Positions 1,260 through 29,311 of a DNA stretch of 39,656 nucleotides are shown in pieces; position 1 is the stretch's first letter; every line of letters starts with the position of its first letter. Source of the DNA: Kayfunavirus AN17P1; the sequence record OZ035755.1. One strand, given 5' to 3'. Made by a program: the position numbers and the translations under genes. The notes under the pieces are model-generated. The model saw only the letters and a list, made by a program, of their open reading frames with translations. It was not told where the DNA came from and searched no databases.

Positions 1260-3018
1260 GAAAACACCCGCTGAAAGACAGGCAGAAATGGTCCAAAGGA
1301 TGAGGGACGACTTCGTGTTCTTCATCTTCGTTCTCTGGAAAGCACTAAGTCTTCCGGTTCCAACCCGCTGCCAGATAGATATGTGTAAGAAGCTGGCTGC
1401 TGGGGATAATCGCCGCTTCATCCTTCAGGCGTTCCGTGGTATTGGCAAGTCGTTTTTGACCTGTGGCTTTGTGGTCTGGAAGCTATGGAATAACCCAGAC
1501 TTGAAGTTCATGATTGTGTCGGCCTCAAAGGAACGAGCCGATGCGAACTCCATCTTCATCAAGCGAATCATCGACCTCATGCCTCAGCTTCGGGAACTCA
1601 AACCTAAGCAGGGGCAGCGAGATGCGGTTATCAGCTTCGACGTTGGACCAGCCAAGCCAGACCACTCACCTTCGGTTAAGTCCGTTGGTATCACTGGTCA
1701 GTTGACTGGTAGTCGTGCTGACATCCTGATTGCCGATGACGTGGAGGTTCCGAACAACTCAGCGACTCAGGCTGCACGAGACCGTCTATCAGAGCTTGTG
1801 AAAGAGTTCGACGCTATCCTGAAGCCGGGAGGTACGATCATCTATCTGGGTACTCCTCAGAACGAGATGACCCTGTACCGTGAGCTGGAAGGTCGTGGGT
1901 ACACCACTACTATCTGGCCCGCTCGTTATCCACGCGACAGGAAGGACTGGCAGTCTTACGGCGACCGTCTGGCTCCTATGCTTCAGGCAGAGCTGGAAGA
2001 GGACCCTGAGTCCTTCTACTGGCGTCCGACTGATGAAGTACGCTTCGATGATACGGACCTGAAGGAACGTGAGCTGTCCTACGGTAAAGCTGGCTTCGCT
2101 CTACAGTTCATGCTTAACCCGAACCTGAGTGATGCCGAGAAGTACCCTCTTAAGCTCCGTGACCTTATCGTAGCCGACTTGGACCCAGCGTCCAGCCCAA
2201 TGGTCTACCAATGGTTGCCGAACCCTCAGAACAAGCGTGAGGACGTTCCTAACGTTGGACTCATGGGTGACTCGTACCACACGTATCAGACTGTAGGTTC
2301 TGCCTTCAGCTCATACACCCAGAAGATTCTGGTCATTGACCCTAGTGGTCGTGGTAAGGATGAAACTGGATATGCGGTACTGTACCAGCTCAACGGCTAC
2401 ATCTTCGCTATGGAAGTTGGTGGCATGCGTGGTGGTTATGAAGACTCTACGCTGGAAGCCTTGGCTAAGATTGGTCGTAAGTGGAAGGTCAACGAGTACG
2501 TCATTGAGGGTAACTTCGGTGATGGTATGTACCTTGAGTTATTCAAGCCTGTAGCGGCCCGTATCCATCCTTCGTCTGTAACTGAAGTGAAGAGTAAGGG
2601 TCAGAAAGAACTCCGCATCTGTGACGTTCTGGAGCCTATCATGGGGTCTCACCGACTTATCGTTAACGCTGCTGCTATAGTCCAAGACTACCAGTCTGCC
2701 TCTGATAAGGATGGTGTTCGTAACCCTATCTACTCTCTCTTCTATCAGATGACACGTATCTCTCGTGAGCGTGGAGCCTTGGCACACGATGACCGACTTG
2801 ATGCGCTGGCTATCGGTGTACAGTTCTTCGTTGAGTCTATGGCTAAGGATGCTAGCAAAGGCGAACGTGAAGTCACTGAGGAATGGCTGGAGGAACAGAT
2901 GGAGAACCCACGGAAAGGCTTCGAGTCCATCCACACTGAGTTCTGGGACAATGGGGTCCGGGTAACTCACGATACGGACGACGAGCTTGGACTAGGGGCA
3001 TACGTTACGTTACACTAG
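1252..3018 (+). CDS. gene 19: Terminase large subunit (T7 gp19 homolog), 588 aa
   Basis: Length and position match T7 gp19 (586 aa); Walker A-like GIGKS and ATPase/nuclease-type motifs (LIADDVEVP); strong SD GGAGGGACTAT before ATG. Confidence 0.95.
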
Positions 3019-3027
3019 CTGAATGAA

Positions 3028-3076
3028 TAACTATAGGTGAAAGCTGCATGAATAAGCAGTTAGTAACCTATAGTTA
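3028..3076. repeat. Perfect 11-bp inverted repeat TAACTATAGGT / ACCTATAGTTA with 27-nt loop
   Basis: Arms at 3028-3038 and 3066-3076 are exact reverse complements; arms contain the promoter core ACTATAGG; lies directly after the terminase stop. Confidence 0.5.
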
Positions 3077-3112
3077 CTACCAGTCTAACATACTGTTTTA
3101 TAAGGAGTTTGG

Positions 3113-3136
3113 ACTTAACTATCACTATAGGGAAGA
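3113..3136 (+). promoter_or_regulatory. Phage RNAP promoter (phiOR-like, right end)
   Basis: TTAACTATCACTATAGGGAAG matches the 11-member consensus CTAAACTATCACTATAGGGA; +1 G at about 3130. Confidence 0.75.
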
Positions 3137-3315
3137 CCCCCGGTTACTTATAGTATTACTGTAGTGAATATACATATGCAGACTTTATTCAAGACCTTAG
3201 GAGGCAGACTCCGAGTTCTTACCTAAGGCTTGCACCGATGGAAGGAGGGTGATATTAATCATAATCCCTCCAATACAGATAGTCACCGACCATAGATACA
3301 GGAGGTATGTAGCAT

Positions 3316-3474
3316 ATGGCAAAGACCAAAGCTGTACTTAAAGCTCTGGCGACCAATCGAGCTACATACAGGTTTCTTGCTGCTGTTCTACTTGCTGCTG
3401 GCGTTACTGCTGGAAGTCAGTGGGTCGGGTGGGTCGAGACTCTCGTATGTTCTCTGGTCTCTCAGTGTAATTAA
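3316..3474 (+). CDS. Small membrane protein, 52 aa (gene 19.5 position)
   Basis: ATG with SD ACAGGAGG; translation MAKTKAVLKALATNRATYRFLAAVLLAAGVTAGSQWVGWVETLVCSLVSQCN has one hydrophobic helix; below the 60-aa track cutoff so read directly from sequence. Confidence 0.45.
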   Translation: MAKTKAVLKALATNRATYRFLAAVLLAAGVTAGSQWVGWVETLVCSLVSQCN

Positions 3475-3510
3475 CGCAATCATGATAACAATCAACGAAA
3501 GGAGGTAGGG

Positions 3511-3579
3511 ATGGACGAGGAGTCTTATGGGCCGTTCTCTGACGAAGATTATCAGACGGAGTGGGAATACGCGCATTGA
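3511..3579 (+). CDS. Very small acidic ORF, 22 aa (MDEESYGPFSDEDYQTEWEYAH)
   Basis: ATG preceded by SD AAAGGAGG at good spacing; no other support. Confidence 0.25.
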   Translation: MDEESYGPFSDEDYQTEWEYAH

Positions 3580-3583
3580 AGAC

Positions 3584-3624
3584 CTAAGGTCAGTTCATAG
3601 CTGACGCTACTCTACTGACCTTAG
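3584..3624. repeat. Inverted repeat CTAAGGTCAGT / ACTGACCTTAG (11-bp stem, 19-nt loop) near the right genome end
   Basis: Exact reverse-complement arms at 3584-3594 and 3614-3624; no downstream U-tract. Confidence 0.45.
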
Positions 3625-3699
3625 CTACTGTAGTCAAGGACTTTAGGTAACACCTTAATAGAAGCTCACTTAGGGTCATCCTACTTATTGGTCTATCCT

Positions 3700-4100
3700 A
3701 GTGTCGCCTGACCTACGGTCCTTGACCTACAGTAGCTGCCACCTACAGTATTCGATGAGTTTTGGACCAAAAGTTTGAGACCACATCTCACAGTTCAAGA
3801 ACCTCAAGTCTCCCCATAGGCCCTCTTTCAGTCCAGACCAAAGGCCCTACCCCAGTCTATCATAAGGTTAGACCGATGGTCAAGACTTCAGGTCAACGAT
3901 AGGTTGTGGCTATGGCTTAGGGAAGGACGATAGGTAGGGACTATTGGTCTGTCTTTGAGTCTCTATCTGTATCAGACCTTGAGTCACTACCTACAGTCTA
4001 ACTACCTACAGTCTAACTACCTACAGTCTAACTACCTACAGTCATCGACCATCGGTAATGCCGCTACCTACAGTCAGAGACCTACGGTTAATAGACACAA
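3700..4100. repeat. Genome terminus region: putative direct terminal repeat flanked by CCTAC(A/G)GT short repeats
   Basis: TCTCACAGTTCAAGAACC...CCCCATAGG at 3786 resembles the T7 (TCTCACAGTGTACGG) and T3 left-end sequences as I recall them; repeated GACCTACGGT / CACCTACAGT motifs on both sides mirror the CCTAAAG arrays flanking the T7 terminal repeat; no CDS. Repeat length cannot be read from a collapsed assembly. Confidence 0.5.
3986..4044. repeat. Tandem array, about 3.9 copies of 15-bp unit ACTACCTACAGTCTA
   Basis: Exact copies at 3986-4000, 4001-4015, 4016-4030 and a partial copy at 4031-4044. Confidence 0.9.
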
Positions 4101-4340
4101 GGCTATAGACTTAAGGTCTAAGACATGTTAGTCAAAGACTACATCCTCTTACACCATGGGGCCGACGATAGCTTAATCAATATTATTTCAAATTACCTAT
4201 TGACTATAGGTCCAGATTATGGCCTAATAGCTTCCGTCAACACGACACGGCAACAACCGGATAGTGAAGACGCCTGGTCATCCCGGTTAAGTAGACAGCC
4301 TGATAAGTCATACGAACAACAGGCAGATGACAGAAAGTAG

Positions 4341-4378
4341 TTGACAAGCAGTAACGATAAGATGTAAGCTGTACCACA
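4341..4378 (+). promoter_or_regulatory. Host sigma70 early promoter candidate (T7 A2/A3-like)
   Basis: Perfect -35 TTGACA (4341-4346), about 18-nt spacer, -10 TAAGCT, then GTACCACAT as in T7 A3 (TACGAT-GTACCACAT) as I recall it; about 200 nt upstream of the first early gene. Confidence 0.5.
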
Positions 4379-4486
4379 TCAAAACAACGGTGACGACCGA
4401 CACTGAAACGGTCTACCTGAAGTCCTCTGACTGAAGGGAATGCTCTTTAACAATCTGGATAAACTCTTAATGTGCGCCGATAGCGA

Positions 4487-4543
4487 CTAACTACAGGGTC
4501 TTTGAGTCTACATCTGAAGGCCCTGACTGATAGTCACTAACAA
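4487..4543 (+). promoter_or_regulatory. Conserved leader element, copy 1 (TAACTACAGGGTC ... CCTGACTGATAGTCACTAA), possible RNase III / translation-initiation leader
   Basis: Shares a 19-nt exact block CCTGACTGATAGTCACTAA and a TAACTACAGG(G)TC block with 4842-4892; ends about 17 nt before the start codon at 4560; small CAGGG/CCCTG stem. Confidence 0.5.
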
Positions 4544-4559
4544 CCTAAGAGGATTCATT

Positions 4560-4838
4560 ATGAGACTGAACAAAGCTACAGCAGAAGCCTTTCGCAAGGA
4601 GCTTGAATCAAGATTATTGTGTGGAGTGGCGGAAGGAGCCGCTCGATATAAAGAGAATGGTCTAACGTTCAAGCGCTTTATGTGGGATTGCTATCACGGA
4701 GTGGGCCATAAAAAGTTGCAGGAAATAATCACCAGCAACAATGCAGAAGTGCAAGTGATAGGAGGATATATGGCTAACGTGAAGGATTCACACATCGAGA
4801 CCATGCTTAAGAATGCACTTAACGATGTAGCCTACTAG
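4560..4838 (+). CDS. Hypothetical early protein, 92 aa; first gene to enter the cell, upstream of ocr
   Basis: SD AAGAGG before ATG; uninterrupted ORF; sits behind a copy of the same leader element as ocr; no recognisable family. Confidence 0.6.
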   Translation: MRLNKATAEAFRKELESRLLCGVAEGAARYKENGLTFKRFMWDCYHGVGHKKLQEIITSNNAEVQVIGGYMANVKDSHIETMLKNALNDVAY

Positions 4839-4841
4839 TGA

Positions 4842-4892
4842 TTAACTACAGGTCGTTAGACTGATAGCGGCCTGACTGATAGTCACTAAAAC
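4842..4892 (+). promoter_or_regulatory. Conserved leader element, copy 2, upstream of ocr
   Basis: Contains CCTGACTGATAGTCACTAA (4871-4889) and TTAACTACAGGTC; paralogous to 4487-4543. Confidence 0.5.
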
Positions 4893-4918
4893 ATACTTAA
4901 CTTTGAGAGGATATAACT

Positions 4919-5251
4919 ATGGAACGTAACGCTAACGCATACTATGAGCTGCTGGCTGCAACCGTTGAAGCATTTAACGAGCGTATTCAGTACGACGAAA
5001 TAGCTGAAGGCGATGACTACCACGATGCGCTGCATGAAGTCGTAGACGGTCAGGTTCCGCACTATTACCACGAGATTTTCACGGTGATGGCTGCTGATGG
5101 TATTGACCATGAGTTTGAAGACTCTGGGCTGATGCCTGATACCAAGGATGTGACGCGTATACTGCAAGCTCGCATCTATGAGGCGCTTTATAACGACGTG
5201 GCTGATAGCTTGGATGTAGTCTGGTTTGAGGCTGAAGAGGGAGACGAGTGA
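4919..5251 (+). CDS. gene 0.3 (ocr): Ocr (T7 gp0.3 homolog), DNA-mimic anti-restriction protein, 110 aa
   Basis: Translation ...[46 protein letters not shown]... is closely similar to T7 Ocr as I recall it ([45 protein letters not shown]); acidic C-terminus. Confidence 0.9.
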
Positions 5252-5406
5252 TGGTAACTTACGGTCTCTGTCAGCATCACGTCACCAACGCCCGGAGTAT
5301 GGTCAAGACCGGGCAATTAAACCACGATGCGACTATGCGTCACCTGAAAGCGGTCTATGAGGGCCACAAGCGCATACACGACAGTTTGCACGCTGAGGAT
5401 AAGTAA
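5251..5406 (+). CDS. gene 0.4: Small early protein, 51 aa, T7 gp0.4-like (FtsZ inhibitor family)
   Basis: ATGA start/stop overlap with ocr; translation [51 protein letters not shown] shares length and YGL...LKxxYExxKxI pattern with T7 gp0.4 as I recall it. Confidence 0.45.
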   Translation: MVTYGLCQHHVTNARSMVKTGQLNHDATMRHLKAVYEGHKRIHDSLHAEDK

Positions 5407-5519
5407 CGTGTATCATAGCCTGACCATAACGCTGACAGGTGGGTACTGAGTGATAGATGAGAGGTCATCGACTGATAGGTGGCCTCAAAGATTACCACTT
5501 GAATTAATAGGAGTTAACT

Positions 5520-5609
5520 ATGAGTGTGGGATATTGGGTCTGCCTAGCGCCAGTTATCTGGATGATAGGCTATGGGTTATACGACTGTATTAAACGGAAA
5601 TCACTATGA
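5520..5609 (+). CDS. Small hydrophobic ORF, 29 aa
   Basis: ATG after TAGGAG; translation MSVGYWVCLAPVIWMIGYGLYDCIKRKSL; stop overlaps the next ORF start. Confidence 0.25.
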   Translation: MSVGYWVCLAPVIWMIGYGLYDCIKRKSL

Positions 5610-5803
5610 GTCTTGCACTATTGATAGCAATAGGCTATGGACTTATCGCCTACGTGCTGGTGAGTGACATTAACAAGGCGCGTAAAGTCTACAAATTCAA
5701 CTATGTACGTCTGGGCCGCTGGACCGTACGTCAACCTAACGGACGATTCATGCGCAACCTAGCGAACGTATGGGATATAGCAACCTTAGGGAGCAAACTG
5801 TAA
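5606..5803 (+). CDS. Early membrane protein, 65 aa
   Basis: N-terminal TM segment (LALLIAIGYGLIAYVLV); position equivalent to the T7 0.5/0.6 region. Confidence 0.45.
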   Translation: MSLALLIAIGYGLIAYVLVSDINKARKVYKFNYVRLGRWTVRQPNGRFMRNLANVWDIATLGSKL

Positions 5804-5853
5804 TGCGCAATACTTGTAGCAAGCGCACTCAAATATCTTCAGGAGAATAAGTA

Positions 5854-6075
5854 ATGAATATAATTAAGGCAGCCACGGAGTCTATTAGCGCCATATTCCT
5901 ACCACGGCAAGAGGTATGTACCTCCCACAAGTTCATACTATCTTGCGTTGTCGGCGACGAGTTTGATGGTTTTGATAAGCTCGTTGTATGTGATTATTGT
6001 GGTCAAGAAGCTATACAGCACTCAAACGGTAAATTCGAACTAATTAACGAGGAAGGGGACGGCGATGGTGAATAA
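5854..6075 (+). CDS. Early Cys-containing protein, 73 aa; N-terminus resembles the start of T7 gp0.7
   Basis: SD CAGGAGAATAAGTA-ATG; N-terminus MNIIKAATESISAIFLP resembles T7 gp0.7 MNITDIMNAIDAIKALP as I recall it; four Cys including CDYC; far too short for a kinase. Confidence 0.45.
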   Translation: MNIIKAATESISAIFLPRQEVCTSHKFILSCVVGDEFDGFDKLVVCDYCGQEAIQHSNGKFELINEEGDGDGE

Positions 6076-6358
6076 CAAAAACAACGTATTTGGATACTTG
6101 GTGACAGGCTACCGACACGGAACCTCAAGTCACACCGCACGTCAACAGCAGGAGCGTGACAGGGTACTGCAAGCAAGACTCCGAGCTGAGGGCCATAAGT
6201 CCGAACTGTTGTGTCTGGCGTATGGTGGACGACCAATCACTGATGATGGTAAACTTCTGGTCTCAGGCTGGAAGGCGATAGACCAACGGTCAACCATCAA
6301 GCACACGACCCATGGTGACTTCAGCCATCTTCACGCTAACCCACTGATATGCAAGTGA
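6065..6358 (+). CDS. Hypothetical early protein, 97 aa
   Basis: ORF overlapping the previous stop; last gene before RNAP; no family recognised. Confidence 0.45.
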   Translation: MVNNKNNVFGYLVTGYRHGTSSHTARQQQERDRVLQARLRAEGHKSELLCLAYGGRPITDDGKLLVSGWKAIDQRSTIKHTTHGDFSHLHANPLICK

Positions 6359-6363
6359 TTCTG

Positions 6364-6387
6364 ACTTAACTATCACTATAGGACTCA
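6364..6387 (+). promoter_or_regulatory. Phage RNAP promoter upstream of the RNAP gene
   Basis: CTTAACTATCACTATAGGACTC fits the consensus; +1 G about 6381, 75 nt before the gene 1 ATG. Confidence 0.65.
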
Positions 6388-6455
6388 AGGTCTAAGACTC
6401 CAAGTGAAAGACCAAAGAGACTTTAAGTGAAAGACTAATAACAAGGACTTTAAGT

Positions 6456-9137
6456 ATGAGCGTCATCTCTATTGACAAACACGACTTCTCTGATGTGTCG
6501 AACGCCATTGAGCCGTTTAACCTGCTGGCTGACCACTACGGGCAAGACCTTGCAGTCAAACAGCTTCAGCTGGAGCACGAGGCATACACTGAAGGCGAGC
6601 GACGTTTCATCAAAAACCTTGAGCGACAGACTGAGCGCGGGGAACTGGCAGACAATCAGGTAGCCAAGCCTTTGATGCAGACTCTGGTCCCTAAGATTGC
6701 GCAAGCCGTCAGGGAGTGGCATGAAGGTCCAGACGGGAAGCTGTCAACCTCTCGTCCGAGCGTAGCGTTCACCATGTTAAGCACTGAAGAGAAGGCCGTC
6801 AAGGACCGCTCTCTTCGCATCTCCTGCGAGTCTGCTGCGGTTATCATACTGAAGGTCATCCTATCCAAGCTGGTCAAACCTGAAGGTATACCGATTACAC
6901 CGATGGCCTCCGCGATAGGTCGCACACTTGAGGATGAAATCCGATTCGGTCGCATTCGTGACAAGGAGAAGGAGCACTTCAAGAAGGCGATAGCTGATAA
7001 CCTGAACAAGAGAGCCGGGGCATCATACAAGAAAGCCTACATGCAAGCGGTCGAGACATCCATGCTGGAGCAAGGCCAACTAGAAGATGCGTGGGGAACT
7101 TGGAGTCCGACCGAGGCTGTCCACGTTGGAATCAAGATGCTGGAGATTGTCATCCAGTCAACACAACTGGTCGAGCTTAAGCGTTACGGTGCTGGCAATG
7201 CAGCGGCTGACGTTGAGATGGTCCACCTGTCAGACTTCTGGGTCAAGAAGATGACACAACGCGGCTTCAGCCTTGCGGGTATCGCTCCAGTCTACCAACC
7301 TTGCGTAGTTCCACCTAAGCCGTGGACTGGTGTCGTAGGCGGTGGGTACTGGGCCAAAGGTCGCAGACCATTACCACTGATTCGCTTAGGGTCTAAGTCT
7401 GCGGTGGCACGTTACGAAGACGTGTATATGCCTGAAGTCTATGACGCTGTTAACATAATCCAGAATACACCTTGGAAAGTGAACAAGAAGGTTCTGGACG
7501 TGGTGAACATGGTCGAGAAGTTGAACAACACGCCTATTGATGACATCCCTCAGATGGAGCCACTGAAGCCTGAAGAATATGCGGGTGAGACTGAAGAGGA
7601 ACTCAAGGCGTGGAAGAAAGCGGCTGCTGGTATCTATCGCCGCGAGAAGGCCAGACAGTCACGCAGATTGTCGCTGAGCTTTATCGTTAACCAAGCGAAC
7701 AAGTTCTCTCAGTTCAAGACCATCTGGTTCCCGTATAACATGGACTGGCGCGGTCGCGTCTACGCTGTGCCGATGTTCAACCCTCAGGGTAACGACATGC
7801 AAAAGGGTCTCCTGACTCTGGCAGTCGGTAAGCCTATTGGTGCTGATGGTTTCAAATGGCTGAAGGTCCACGGTGCAAACTGTGCGGGTGTCGATAAAGT
7901 AACCTTCGAGGAGCGCATCAAGTGGGTGGAAGATAACCACGACAACATCATGGCTACCTCTAAGGCACCGATGGACAGCATTGAGTGGTGGGGAAAGTTA
8001 GACTCTCCGTTCTGCTTCCTAGCGTTCTGCTTCGAGTATGCCGGCGTAATGCATCACGGATTGTCTTACTCCTGCTCGCTGCCGATAGCTTTCGATGGGT
8101 CCTGCTCTGGGATTCAGCACTTTAGCGCGATGCTTCGTGATCACATCGGTGGACATGCAGTAAACCTGACGCCTTCCGGTAAGGTCCAAGACATCTACCG
8201 CATCGTGTCTGACCGCATTGAGGAAGAGCTTAAAGTCCTGCTGGTTAACGGCACGGACAACGAGATGGTAACTCACGAGGACAAGAAAACTGGTGAGATT
8301 ACCGAACGTCTCAAGCTGGGGACACGAGAGCTGGCCCGGCAGTGGCTGACTTACGGTATGTCACGCAAGGTTACTAAGCGCTCAGTCATGACTCTGGCCT
8401 ATGGGTCGAAAGAGTACGGCTTTGCAGACCAAGTTTATGAGGACATCGTGATGCCAGCGATTGACTCAGGGTCTGGCGCTATGTTCACTGAACCAAGCCA
8501 AGCGTCCTGCTTCATGGCTAAGATGATTTGGGAAGCTGTGAGTGTGACCGTAGTTGCTGCGGTTGACGCGATGAAGTGGCTTCAAGGTGCTGCCAAGCTG
8601 CTGGCGGCTGAAGTGAAGGACAAGAAGACTGGAGAAATCCTGAAGCCTTGCCTTCCGGTACACTGGGTCACACCTGATGGGTTCCCGGTCTGGCAGGAAT
8701 ACCGCAAGAAGGATACCACTCGTCTGAACCTGATGTTCTTAGGGTCATTCAACCTTCAGCCTACCGTCAACAAAGGCACGAAGAAGGAGTTGGATAAGCA
8801 CAAGCAGGAGTCAGGAATTAGCCCGAACTTCGTCCACTCACAAGATGGTAGCCATCTCCGCAAGACTGTAGTCCACACTCACCGTAAGTATGGCGTGATG
8901 TCGTTCGCAGTGATTCACGATAGCTTCGGGACCATCCCGGCTGACGCTGAATATCTGTTCCGTGGTGTCCGTGAGACGATGGTCGAGACCTACCGCGATA
9001 ACGATGTGCTGCTTGACTTCTACGAGCAGTTTGAATACCAACTTCATGAGAGCCAGCGCGACAAGTTGCCTGAGCTTCCGAAGAAAGGTAAACTGAATAT
9101 TGAGGACATTCTATCTTCAGACTTTGCATTCGCTTAA
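6456..9137 (+). CDS. gene 1: T7-type single-subunit DNA-dependent RNA polymerase, 893 aa
   Basis: Collinear similarity to T7 RNAP as I recall it (AIWFPYNMDWRGRVYAV, HGANCAGVDK, SPFCFLAFCFEYAG, SCSGIQHFSAMLRD, IHDSFGT, C-terminal FAFA). Confidence 0.97.
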   Translation: MSVISIDKHDFSDVSNAIEPFNLLADHYGQDLAVKQLQLEHEAYTEGERRFIKNLERQTERGELADNQVAKPLMQTLVPKIAQAVREWHEGPDGKLSTSRPSVAFTMLSTEEKAVKDRSLRISCESAAVIILKVILSKLVKPEGIPITPMASAIGRTLEDEIRFGRIRDKEKEHFKKAIADNLNKRAGASYKKAYMQAVETSMLEQGQLEDAWGTWSPTEAVHVGIKMLEIVIQSTQLVELKRYGAGNAAADVEMVHLSDFWVKKMTQRGFSLAGIAPVYQPCVVPPKPWTGVVGGGYWAKGRRPLPLIRLGSKSAVARYEDVYMPEVYDAVNIIQNTPWKVNKKVLDVVNMVEKLNNTPIDDIPQMEPLKPEEYAGETEEELKAWKKAAAGIYRREKARQSRRLSLSFIVNQANKFSQFKTIWFPYNMDWRGRVYAVPMFNPQGNDMQKGLLTLAVGKPIGADGFKWLKVHGANCAGVDKVTFEERIKWVEDNHDNIMATSKAPMDSIEWWGKLDSPFCFLAFCFEYAGVMHHGLSYSCSLPIAFDGSCSGIQHFSAMLRDHIGGHAVNLTPSGKVQDIYRIVSDRIEEELKVLLVNGTDNEMVTHEDKKTGEITERLKLGTRELARQWLTYGMSRKVTKRSVMTLAYGSKEYGFADQVYEDIVMPAIDSGSGAMFTEPSQASCFMAKMIWEAVSVTVVAAVDAMKWLQGAAKLLAAEVKDKKTGEILKPCLPVHWVTPDGFPVWQEYRKKDTTRLNLMFLGSFNLQPTVNKGTKKELDKHKQESGISPNFVHSQDGSHLRKTVVHTHRKYGVMSFAVIHDSFGTIPADAEYLFRGVRETMVETYRDNDVLLDFYEQFEYQLHESQRDKLPELPKKGKLNIEDILSSDFAFA

Positions 9138-9153
9138 TAACAGGAGAGACAAC

Positions 9154-9354
9154 ATGCAATTCGAACACCGTGTATCAAACGTACCTGGTGGTAACAAGGT
9201 CGTAACAGTAACAATGGCGGCTGGCAAGGGTCTATTCAAAGTTACTATGGTCCCGACTGGAACGGCTAAGGCCAAAGGTATCAGCCAGAAGGAGCTGATT
9301 CAGGTAATCCAGTGGTCGCACGAGAAGGCCCTACGGGAAGAGGCAACCAAATGA
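9154..9354 (+). CDS. Hypothetical small protein, 66 aa, inserted after gene 1
   Basis: ATG with SD AGGAGA; translation MQFEHRVSNVPGGNKVVTVTMAAGKGLFKVTMVPTGTAKAKGISQKELIQVIQWSHEKALREEATK; the track ORF 9100-9354 starts inside RNAP and is the same frame. Confidence 0.45.
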   Translation: MQFEHRVSNVPGGNKVVTVTMAAGKGLFKVTMVPTGTAKAKGISQKELIQVIQWSHEKALREEATK

Positions 9355-9428
9355 CAGACCTACAGTTACTGGCCATGTGGCTGGGAGCACTAGCAGTATT
9401 CACTTTAATCCAACGCAGAAGAGGTTAA
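9351..9428 (+). CDS. Small hydrophobic ORF, 25 aa (MTDLQLLAMWLGALAVFTLIQRRRG)
   Basis: ATGA overlap with the previous stop; single hydrophobic helix plus basic tail; no SD of its own, so possibly translationally coupled. Confidence 0.25.
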   Translation: MTDLQLLAMWLGALAVFTLIQRRRG

Positions 9429-9429
9429 C

Positions 9430-9453
9430 CCTAAACTATCACTATAGGATTAG
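9430..9453 (+). promoter_or_regulatory. Phage RNAP promoter (phi1.1-like)
   Basis: CCTAAACTATCACTATAGGATTA; consensus match. Confidence 0.75.
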
Positions 9454-9492
9454 ACTAAAGGTCATGACTCAAAGTCGTGGCCTTCATGATTA
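9451..9492 (+). promoter_or_regulatory. Conserved stem-loop, putative RNase III site (R1.1-like)
   Basis: AAGGTCATGACT / AGTCGTGGCCTT arms (9458-9469, 9473-9484) with two G-U pairs and a 3-nt loop; same family as 294-346 and 16631-16677. Confidence 0.4.
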
Positions 9493-9525
9493 ACCCTAAA
9501 TAAACACTACTGGAGATTTAACCGT

Positions 9526-9705
9526 ATGTATCAGAACACTATCAACTTCGAGCGCATCCGTGAACGTCAGCAGACTGAAGGTTACATCCCGAAGGGCCGT
9601 AAGCTGAACAAGACCAAGCGTGGCGGTGGTATCAAAGGCGCTTTCCGAAACGCTGAAGGTAAAGACTCTCTGGTCAACCAAGAGAAATACTTCGTAGGAG
9701 CATAA
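9526..9705 (+). CDS. gene 1.1: gp1.1-like small basic protein, 59 aa
   Basis: Translation MYQNTINFERIRERQQTEGYIPKGRKLNKTKRGGGIKGAF... contains KGRKLNKTKR, as in T7 gp1.1 as I recall it; just below the 60-aa track cutoff. Confidence 0.6.
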   Translation: MYQNTINFERIRERQQTEGYIPKGRKLNKTKRGGGIKGAFRNAEGKDSLVNQEKYFVGA

Positions 9706-11234: not shown

Positions 11235-11273
11235 AACCCAGTGGTCTTAGGACTGCTGGGTTTCTTTGCTTCT
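11235..11273 (+). terminator. Putative rho-independent early terminator (TE-like)
   Basis: Stem AACCCAG / CTGGGTT (11235-11241, 11256-11262) followed by TCTTTGCTTCT; lies after the ligase block, where T7 has TE. Confidence 0.4.
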
Positions 11274-12005: not shown

Positions 12006-12104
12006 ATGGAAAAGCCGAGTGAGTGGTGCGAGCGTAAATTTGAGGAGACAGGTAACGTCGATTACCTTCAGCTCTACAACTTATGGAAGGAGCGTGGTCT
12101 ATGA
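12006..12104 (+). CDS. Small ORF, 32 aa (gene 1.8 position)
   Basis: [32 protein letters not shown]; stop overlaps the Gp2 start. Confidence 0.3.
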
Positions 12105-12259
12105 CTGACGTAGAGAAGAAGTACATCGTGGAGCTTGAGGGTCGCATTCAGTCCTTCGAGGTTCCGGTGTACGCAAAGTCTCTTGAAGAGGCTACCCTGA
12201 AGTCCCAAGAGTATGAGGACGCTGGGTTTGTGGTCGGACGGATTCGCCCTGAGACCTAA
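12101..12259 (+). CDS. gene 2: Gp2, inhibitor of host RNA polymerase, 52 aa
   Basis: [52 protein letters not shown] matches the T7 Gp2 core (HSFEVPIYAETLDEA...AGFEVTRVRP) as I recall it; below the track cutoff. Confidence 0.8.
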
Positions 12260-12278
12260 ACTATCACTGTAGGACAGA
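12255..12278 (+). promoter_or_regulatory. Phage RNAP promoter, variant (TGTAGG instead of TATAGG)
   Basis: CCTAAACTATCACTGTAGGACAG; one mismatch in the TATA element; 40 nt before the SSB gene. Confidence 0.6.
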
Positions 12279-13470: not shown

Positions 13471-13958
13471 GCCAGAAGTTTAAACTGTTAGTAGATATAT
13501 ATGGTTGGCCTCGTGGGACTATCGTTACCAAGTGTAAGAAGGACCCAGCTCCGTTGCCTACCCTTACCCTAGTTGAGTGCCAGACTCCAGGCAAATACAA
13601 ACATGGGCCTAACGGCTTCAATACTCAGCCTAAGGGCATGTGGGGAGCATGGATTGCTGACAGATATCTTGAGGAAATCAAACCAGAAGAGGAACTCACT
13701 GGTGTACAGACCACTCAAGTCCTTCCAGCTTCGAGCGTACCTCCTGTGACAGTGAAACGCGAAGTCCTGACAATCGACAAGATTGGGGTGGGCCAGACGT
13801 TCATCGTCCACGGAAAGCCTGACGAAGTTTACGTGAAGATCAGCAACTCACACGTCTTCAACCATAAGCGTCTCCAGATGCATACCACGGACGCACAACG
13901 CTTCACCCAGCATCTGAATCTAGTGGTTGTAGAATTGGTGGTGTACAATGGTAAGTAA
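13467..13958 (+). CDS. Hypothetical protein, 163 aa, inserted between endonuclease I and lysozyme
   Basis: Strong SD AGAAAGGAG before ATG; ATGA overlap with the gene 3 stop; T7 has no gene here; no family recognised. Confidence 0.6.
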   Translation: MSQKFKLLVDIYGWPRGTIVTKCKKDPAPLPTLTLVECQTPGKYKHGPNGFNTQPKGMWGAWIADRYLEEIKPEEELTGVQTTQVLPASSVPPVTVKREVLTIDKIGVGQTFIVHGKPDEVYVKISNSHVFNHKRLQMHTTDAQRFTQHLNLVVVELVVYNGK

Positions 13959-14406
13959 GGTACAGTTCAAACCGCGCAGCCGTACAGACGCAATCTTCGT
14001 CCACTGTAGCGCAACCAAGCCAGAGATGGACATCGGGGTAGAGACCATCCGTATGTGGCACAAGCAGCAAGGCTGGCTGGACGTAGGCTACCACTTTATC
14101 ATCAAGCGCGATGGTACTGTGGAAGAGGGTCGCCCGGTCAATGTCGTAGGGTCACACGTTAAGGACTGGAACTCACGGTCTGTAGGCGTCTGCCTTGTAG
14201 GTGGAATTGACGCTAAGGGCAAGTTTGAAGCTAACTTCACTCCGGCCCAGATGAACTCACTGCGCAACAAGCTGGCTGACCTGAAGGTCCTGTATCCTCA
14301 GGCAGAAATCAAAGCACACCATGACGTAGCACCAAAGGCGTGTCCAAGTTTCGACTTGCAACGCTGGCTGTCTACCAATGAACTGGTAACTTCCGACCAC
14401 GGTTAA
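13948..14406 (+). CDS. gene 3.5: Lysozyme / N-acetylmuramoyl-L-alanine amidase (T7 gp3.5 homolog), 152 aa
   Basis: AIFVHCSATKPEMDIGVETIRMWHKQQGWLDVGYHFIIKRDGTVEEGR...KACPSFDL matches T7 lysozyme as I recall it. Confidence 0.92.
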   Translation: MVSKVQFKPRSRTDAIFVHCSATKPEMDIGVETIRMWHKQQGWLDVGYHFIIKRDGTVEEGRPVNVVGSHVKDWNSRSVGVCLVGGIDAKGKFEANFTPAQMNSLRNKLADLKVLYPQAEIKAHHDVAPKACPSFDLQRWLSTNELVTSDHG

Positions 14407-14429: not shown

Positions 14430-14645
14430 ATGATTAAACTTATCGAATTTCTTGGTCGTCTGGTGGTGCGTGGTTATCGTCGTGCTGCGGTTATGGAACG
14501 AAAGGTAGCAGAGAAGACTGCCGATGGTGCGGCTGATGCTGCTGCTCTGGCTGACAAGCTGACCATCGCGTCACTGGAAGCTGGCATGAAGGCGCGTCAG
14601 GCTGACACCAAAGCCGACCAGTTGTCTCAGTTCTTCAAAGCCTAA
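14430..14645 (+). CDS. Hypothetical Ala-rich small protein, 71 aa
   Basis: ORF between lysozyme and primase-helicase; helical low-complexity sequence; weak SD. Confidence 0.45.
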   Translation: MIKLIEFLGRLVVRGYRRAAVMERKVAEKTADGAADAAALADKLTIASLEAGMKARQADTKADQLSQFFKA

Positions 14646-14664
14646 ACTATCACCTTAGGGATGG
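14641..14664 (+). promoter_or_regulatory. Phage RNAP promoter, degenerate variant (CACCTTAGGG)
   Basis: CCTAAACTATCACCTTAGGGATGG; two mismatches in the -5 to -2 region; 50 nt before gene 4. Confidence 0.4.
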
Positions 14665-20657: not shown

Positions 20658-20681
20658 ACTAAACTATCACTATAGGGACTT
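20658..20681 (+). promoter_or_regulatory. Phage RNAP promoter (phi6.5-like)
   Basis: CACTAAACTATCACTATAGGGACT; consensus match. Confidence 0.8.
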
Positions 20682-20741
20682 TAGGACCTAAGATATGACT
20701 ATAAGATAGACTTTAGTCTTAACTTAAAGAGGAGATTCAAG

Positions 20742-29261: not shown

Positions 29262-29311
29262 AAGGGCCTATAGATTTACCTTAACTATCACTATAGGGAC
29301 TATAGGCCCTT
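29262..29311. repeat. Perfect 12-bp inverted repeat AAGGGCCTATAG / CTATAGGCCCTT enclosing the phi13 promoter core
   Basis: Arms at 29262-29273 and 29300-29311 are exact reverse complements; the 26-nt loop holds TTAACTATCACTATAGGGA. Confidence 0.6.
29279..29302 (+). promoter_or_regulatory. Phage RNAP promoter (phi13-like)
   Basis: CCTTAACTATCACTATAGGGACT; consensus match. Confidence 0.75.

Follow-up and report, generated by a model that had tools for sequence, protein, structure and literature searches.

The window, the whole 39,656-bp stretch of DNA that was analysed, holds the complete genome of a K1F-like coliphage (Kayfunavirus, T7 family) in circularly permuted form. Window positions 5800-7000 matched 221 phage records, and over this stretch Kayfunavirus AN24P4 is 99 % identical to the window. 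Nucleotide 1 of K1F aligns to window position 3786, so that the physical left end is placed there, with one copy of the terminal repeat present in the assembly. The repeat is given here as 3786-3964, its end being approximate and taken from the 179 bp quoted for the terminal repeat of K1F (PMC4925675). Tandem repeats lie just inside it at 3987-4045 and 4060-4090, made up of three to four copies of CTACCTACAGTCTAA and scattered ACCTACAGTC / ACCTACGGT, and this repeat family tops the k-mer counts in many Kayfunavirus contigs and also in CR8. The genome encodes ocr, a gp2-type host RNA polymerase inhibitor (12083-12259, + strand; Pfam RNA_pol_inhib, 3e-20) and a gp3.5-type amidase of the T7 lysozyme family (13948-14406, + strand; Pfam Amidase_2; phrog_822, 2e-80). 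No ORF of the size of the gene 0.7 kinase was found among the early genes (window 3786-6358), and CR44b was also reported to be without the gene 0.7 kinase (PMC4038870). The kinase gene is present in IMM-002, IME278, GW1 and CR8, and the pre-gene-1 promoter described below occurs in genomes with or without it.

Gene 1 (6456-9137, + strand) encodes a T7-type single-subunit RNA polymerase of 893 aa (Pfam RNA_pol, 4e-106, and RPOL_N; phrog_414) with the specificity loop TRLNLMFLGSFNLQ. Many annotations, in RefSeq (e.g. NC_007456, NC_048135 and NC_048071) and elsewhere, call the T7-type polymerase 'N4-like RNA polymerase', and phrog_2166 also bears this name, which is misleading for a T7-family enzyme. 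The last early ORF (6065-6358, + strand), which encodes a K1F gp0.38-like protein of 97 aa (phrog_7066), ends upstream of gene 1, and the gap that follows holds a predicted cognate promoter for the phage RNA polymerase at 6364-6386 (-17 to +6, sequence ACTTAACTATCACTATAGGACTC), recognised by its sequence, its matrix score and its conservation. The promoter lies on the + strand, as do all genes, and its first base is five bases past the upstream stop codon (6358). A transcript started at the predicted +1 would open with a 75-nt 5' leader (6381-6455, + strand) carrying the Shine-Dalgarno sequence AAGGA at 6443-6447. Directly after gene 1 come a conserved 66-aa ORF (9154-9354, + strand; phrog_8082), known as gene 1.05 in CR44b, and a hydrophobic ORF of 25 aa, MTDLQLLAMWLGALAVFTLIQRRRG (9351-9428, + strand), which overlaps the preceding stop codon (ATGA).

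These two ORFs were taken as insertions in the initial annotation, a reading that did not hold up, as the 66-aa ORF occupies the equivalent position in six relatives (K1F, CR44b, IMM-002, IME278, GW1 and EcpYZU01; 41-61 % identity). The DNA of the 25-aa ORF is conserved in CR44b and K1F at the nucleotide level. The accompanying expectation, that the pre-gene-1 promoter would also transcribe them, remains sound apart from the word 'inserted', since both precede the next phage promoter, a phi1.1 equivalent found by core match and matrix (9430-9452, + strand; +1 at 9447), and would thus be co-transcribed with gene 1.

Promoter positions were numbered by the usual T7-group scheme, which places +1 at G 6381. 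The initiation sequence TATAGGACTC begins with the two G residues (+1 and +2) expected of T7-group promoters. A consensus promoter 75 nt before gene 1 had been claimed at 6364-6387, and both the promoter and the distance to the ATG at 6456 were confirmed exactly; the element itself ends at 6386, and 6387 is +7. Across the whole window the core CTATCACTATAGG occurs in nine exact copies, and a tenth differs at one base (+1 at 12272); all lie on the + strand, and the ten near-identical promoters have their +1 at 3130, 6381, 9447, 11307, 12272, 20675, 23499, 24508, 29296 and 36572. No match to the 23-mer within three mismatches appeared in any of 100 dinucleotide shuffles. On a weight matrix trained on the nine other promoters, with the pre-gene-1 site left out, this site scored 32.5 bits and the other promoters 34-39 bits; the next-best site in the scan reached 24.1 bits (+1 at 14658) and all remaining sequence stayed below 15 bits. 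Leave-one-out ranking put the pre-gene-1 site in mid-range, above three middle-region promoters and phi10. One of the ten is a phiOR-like promoter after gene 19 (3113-3135, + strand; +1 at 3130; core match and matrix), with which the gene 1 promoter shares an identical 20-nt sequence, GACTTAACTATCACTATAGG (3111-3130). Late promoters in this genome mostly start with GGG (GGGAGA at phi10) and those of the early and middle regions with GGA. The pre-gene-1 site starts with GGACTC, and at -2 it carries A in IMM-002-type genomes and G in EcpYZU01, the latter matching EcpYZU01's own middle promoters, so by its bases the site looks like a middle (class II-like) promoter. No overlapping sigma-70 promoter was flagged at the site.

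The candidate host promoter of the early region is a sigma-70 element at 4341-4370 (+ strand), composed of TTGACA, an 18-nt spacer and TAAGCT followed by GTACCACAT, which aligns with T7 A3/A2 and is conserved in K1F. No + strand terminator was predicted in 2900-9700, hence none from this promoter through gene 1. The A-type candidate could thus let host polymerase produce the initial gene 1 mRNA, and a self-amplifying loop is architecturally possible. A terminator-like hairpin after the ligase gene (11235-11262, + strand) agrees in position with TE in T7 and Yepe2 and is likely the end of the early transcripts made by host polymerase. The class II pause/termination motif ATCTGTT was considered as a further signal and rejected, as it occurs at chance frequency and its sole + strand copy lies within gene 1 (8953) without a T-run.

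Conservation was examined in 28 Kayfunavirus loci, 23 taken from IMG/VR together with K1F, IMM-002, IME278, GW1 and EcpYZU01. Promoter sites were found in each genome with a promoter-shaped regular expression; seeding with the most frequent 10-mer was set aside because the ACCTACAGTC repeats near the genome end captured it in many loci. A pre-gene-1 promoter was present in 28/28 loci, with +1 at 75-82 nt before the ATG, and in K1F (AM084414, 2474-2496) the 23-mer is identical and stands likewise 75 nt before gene 1. A query with the 141-nt intergenic sequence matched 220 phage records, each at a coverage of at least 80 %. In all 28 loci the hexamer at -13 to -8 of the pre-gene-1 site is the majority hexamer of the same genome, being AACTAT in most genomes and AACCCT, with a T3-like triplet, in the GW1/EcpYZU01 lineage. 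The polymerase loop differs accordingly (T7 positions): genomes with AACTAT have N748 and N756, and those with AACCCT have D748 and R756, as in T3. CR8, with a polymerase that is 71 % identical, uses a third motif, GAAGGTACACTATAGG (GGTACAC), and a copy of it also lies in the gap before its gene 1. The specificity bases (-12 to -8) of the pre-gene-1 site are thus matched to the polymerase loop, and the K1F specificity loop and K1F-type promoter are known to function as a pair in engineered polymerases (PMC4299498). When 26 distinct sequences were aligned, TCACT and AGGAC showed no change at all beside variable flanks and a variable leader, the leader falling into three quite different haplotypes. 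GW1-type sites have flanks that are nearly K1F-like, and their substitutions are gathered at -15 to -9.

This co-variation is strong comparative evidence, and the strongest to hand, that the pre-gene-1 site is functional. The phage's single-subunit RNA polymerase very probably uses the site as a promoter, immediately 5' of the enzyme's own gene, so that the claim of a cognate promoter directly upstream of the polymerase gene appears genuine, the element being present throughout the 28 loci and tracking polymerase specificity. By the same comparison it is constantly present in the K1F group and in some neighbouring genera. What conservation points to is a functional site, which is not the same as a boost to gene 1 as the selected function. 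Neither mapped 5' ends of transcripts nor in vitro transcription or mutant results turned up for Kayfunavirus in the literature searched, and the papers on Kvp1, KBNP1315 and IMM-002 give no promoter positions; from the arrangement we infer initiation at 6381 in vivo and positive feedback. Self-amplification of gene 1 is most likely the promoter's role, and feedback is probably, though with less assurance than attaches to the promoter itself, the role for which it was selected.

In the proposed sequence of events, host RNA polymerase would start at the A-type promoter near 4341 after DNA entry and read the small early genes and gene 1, up to the TE-like terminator at 11235-11262. The first phage polymerase to be translated would then also initiate at G 6381 and transcribe gene 1, the 66-aa gene 1.05, the small ORF and then the middle genes. 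The gp2-type protein, once made, would stop host-driven transcription of gene 1, and gene 1 mRNA would still be supplied after this inactivation of the host polymerase, by a self-amplifying route independent of the host. Later the loop would probably be damped by the gp3.5 lysozyme and by competition from late promoters; the GGA start and the -2 variants resemble those of class II-like middle promoters, which makes such damping probable. The gp3.5-type amidase is accordingly a candidate late brake on the phage polymerase, and by analogy with T7 the pre-gene-1 promoter would be expected to be sensitive to lysozyme. Cells in engineered systems poorly tolerate a polymerase driven by its own promoter, as in the T7 autogene, and the output of the pre-gene-1 promoter may therefore be kept modest. 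The T7 'autogene', the T7 polymerase gene under a T7 promoter, was reportedly described by Dubendorff and Studier in 1991 and is said to need a repressor and lysozyme. Its circuit logic, a polymerase gene under its cognate promoter, is equal to that of the window; the autogene is artificial and plasmid-borne, whereas the loop in the window would be natural, transient and set within a lytic programme.

The position of phage promoters was also compared across T7-like genera, by consulting record annotations and searching every genome for its motif, in a small sample of genera from which Pasteurella phage Pa7 was left out, its promoter motif not being definable. A left-end promoter, with none within 250-300 nt of gene 1, was found in T7 (nt 405), T3 (~383), Yepe2 (Berlinvirus; 644-666), PP81 (Pektosvirus; 440-462), Pharr (Przondovirus; ~110) and fPS-9 (Helsettvirus; 548-570), and among T7/T3-like IMG/VR contigs about 22 share this pattern, with no promoter near gene 1 in about 25. 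The reverse arrangement, a pre-gene-1 promoter and no left-end one, is that of Kayfunavirus, CR8 (3356-3378), gh-1 (939-961) and Pseudomonas phage 10P302A (~4752-4781). Neither promoter was found in SP6 or in the ICP3-type Vibrio phage JSF36. The absence of a promoter at this place from T7, T3, Yepe2, PP81, Pharr, fPS-9, SP6 and ICP3-type phages indicates that phages do not generally need such feedback on gene 1. The initial annotation had held that gene 1 of T7 is transcribed by host RNA polymerase only. There is indeed no T7 promoter in the 0.7-1 gap of T7, where the minor E. coli promoter C is the sole one on record, but phiOL at nt 405 lies upstream of the whole T7 early region, gene 1 included, so the statement is a simplification. 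T7 phiOL resembles the window site in that phage polymerase could read through gene 1 from it, and differs in its place ahead of the host promoters at the left end and in being off consensus (26 of 36 bits).

In this small sample of genera the left-end and pre-gene-1 positions look mutually exclusive, which suggests an alternative view in which the pre-gene-1 site substitutes for phiOL. A functional promoter might accordingly have been selected for the role of phiOL, shifted from the left end to before gene 1, and serve the phage polymerase as an entry point to the left part of the genome, be it to prime replication, to let the polymerase drive entry or processing of the DNA, or to transcribe the early region late, with any boost to gene 1 incidental. 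T7 phiOL is considered weakly used and has been associated with polymerase-mediated genome entry (PMC6171733), which lends this reading some substance. We regard it as unlikely, however, because +1 lies 2,596 nt from the left end (3786), downstream of the host promoters and of all early genes, and a site some 2.6 kb in cannot transcribe the early genes or act at the genome end. The exclusivity on which the reading draws is also drawn from few genera, and SP6 and the ICP3-type phages show neither promoter. The site was rejected as a phiOL-type left-end promoter in the strict sense, as such a promoter would stand within a few hundred bases of the end and before the host promoters, and the site does neither. 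It was likewise rejected as a T7-type primary replication origin: the A+T content over +1 to +75 is 63 %, equal to that after the promoters at 9447 and 20675 and no richer than after other promoters, unlike that of the T7 origin.

A broader generalisation can be put forward only tentatively, and we consider it doubtful, namely that each T7-like lineage keeps exactly one phage promoter reading into gene 1, either at the left end or before gene 1. The left end may then be the choice of T7-, T3-, Berlin-, PP81-, K11- and fPS-9-type phages, and the pre-gene-1 position that of Kayfunavirus, Caroctavirus and Ghunavirus. If this were true, the two positions would be interchangeable answers to one need, be it polymerase supply after host shut-off or a handling of the left part of the genome that depends on the polymerase, and the weakly used and poorly understood phiOL of T7 would gain a testable function.

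Far less probable than a phiOL-like role is that the site is a neutral promoter copy, kept by descent or by recombination between promoters and without a real part in expression. The 20 bases identical to the phiOR-like promoter at 3111-3130 could have arisen in this way, and most relatives are close, with at least 95 % identity over the intergenic stretch. Re-tuning to three polymerase specificities at a fixed position is, however, not expected of a neutral relic, and the disfavoured copy would also have to account for GW1-type changes that are confined mostly to -15 to -9 between K1F-like flanks and for a core that is invariant over 26 distinct sequences beside a variable leader. Least credible of all is that the element acts mainly as RNA, for instance as an RNase III site like T7 R1 within the early transcript of host polymerase, with an incidental likeness to a promoter: the corresponding 0.7-1 gap of T7 does contain an RNase III site, and a putative stem-loop for this enzyme, R1, is annotated ahead of gene 1 in the gh-1 record, but in the window the fold is no better than that of shuffles (z = 0.68 for 6381-6470 and 0.16 for 6300-6470), an alignment fold of eight diverse relatives gave a 5-bp helix only, with no compensatory changes, an Rfam scan of 5900-6700 returned no match, and the conserved bases coincide exactly with the promoter positions.

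The promoter before gene 1, as a cognate element read by the phage's own polymerase, is already known. In Citrobacter phage CR44b (Kayfunavirus, HG818823, 1814-1836) and K1F the homologous site, the sequence class, the distance to gene 1 and the following gene 1.05 are alike, and there is no material difference from the window; the CR44b record labels the element merely 'predicted promoter', the K1F records hold no promoter features and the genome announcement of CR8 and CR44b makes no mention of promoters. Citrobacter phage CR8 (Caroctavirus, HG818824) also carries, between its early genes and gene 1, a cognate promoter annotated 'predicted promoter' at 3356-3378, an annotation that puts +1 at ~87 nt before the ATG, and like the window it lacks a left-end phage promoter; it differs in promoter specificity (GAAGGTACACTATAGG), in its polymerase and in possessing a 0.7-like gene. 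Among Ghunavirus, gh-1 ('phi1', AF493143) and 10P302A have a cognate promoter ~100-120 nt before the polymerase gene, and in 10P302A (~120 nt before gene 1) it comes after about ten early ORFs, as it comes after the early genes in the window. The Ghunavirus phages differ in host and in promoter sequence, and gh-1 further differs in having no early genes, so that phi1 is also its left-most promoter, and in the overlap of phi1 with predicted host signals (Te1, A4).

The feedback idea has also been published for other phages. In Pseudomonas phage LUZ100 a phage-specific promoter, phi1, lies directly upstream of the phage polymerase gene, as in the window, and positive feedback following host read-through has been proposed for it (PMC10134795). 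Its start was mapped by ONT-cappable-seq, whereas that of the window is predicted, and LUZ100 differs further in its lysogeny genes and in a MarR-type repressor by which the promoter is believed to be gated (PMC10134795); no MarR-type regulator was seen adjoining the promoter of the window. Autoregulation was the interpretation given for Vibrio phage phiA318, in which a promoter is predicted ahead of the genes for kinase and polymerase (PMC4099482). This phage resembles the window in having a cognate promoter before the polymerase gene, predicted in both cases, and is distinct in that a kinase-polymerase pair follows the promoter and in being of a different subfamily. With the homologue annotated in the CR44b and CR8 records, phi1 in the gh-1 record and the idea in published papers, the novelty is low and the result is mostly confirmation; only the three-way co-variation and the apparent either/or relation with phiOL are modestly new.

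A part of the T7 family thus appears to wire its polymerase gene unlike textbook T7, and a gene 1 that can be read by its own product would amount to a built-in amplifier. This bears on infection-timing models of K1F-type phages, which are of use in therapy and engineering, and on work that takes K1F-type polymerase/promoter pairs as orthogonal parts for expression. With its three specificities, the co-variation offers a clean example from nature of a promoter tracking its polymerase.

Several further promoter-like sites were observed in the window. The sequence CCTAAACTATCACCTTAGGGATG at 14641-14663 (+1 at 14658; 24 bits) is a variant with CT for TA at -4/-3 and stands 56 nt ahead of the primase/helicase gene (14714). 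The same variant precedes the primase/helicase gene in IMM-002 (12044) and IME278 (11650), and the site probably acts as a weak promoter that these phages have conserved. At 20687-20709, 29 nt downstream of a phi6.5-type promoter (+1 at 20675), stands the degenerate promoter-like sequence CCTAAGATATGACTATAAGATAG (14.5 bits), and IMM-002 and IME278 keep a site of this type at an equal offset. Before gene 13, the promoter (29289-29306) has a tandemly duplicated start region, CACTATAGG then GACTATAGG, and its transcript would open with GGGACUAUAGG. An inverted repeat, TAACTATAGGT ... ACCTATAGTTA, occupies 3026-3078, shortly past the end of the large terminase gene (stop at 3018) and ahead of the phiOR-like promoter, with a loop of ~27 nt and arms that resemble the promoter core (AACTATAGG).
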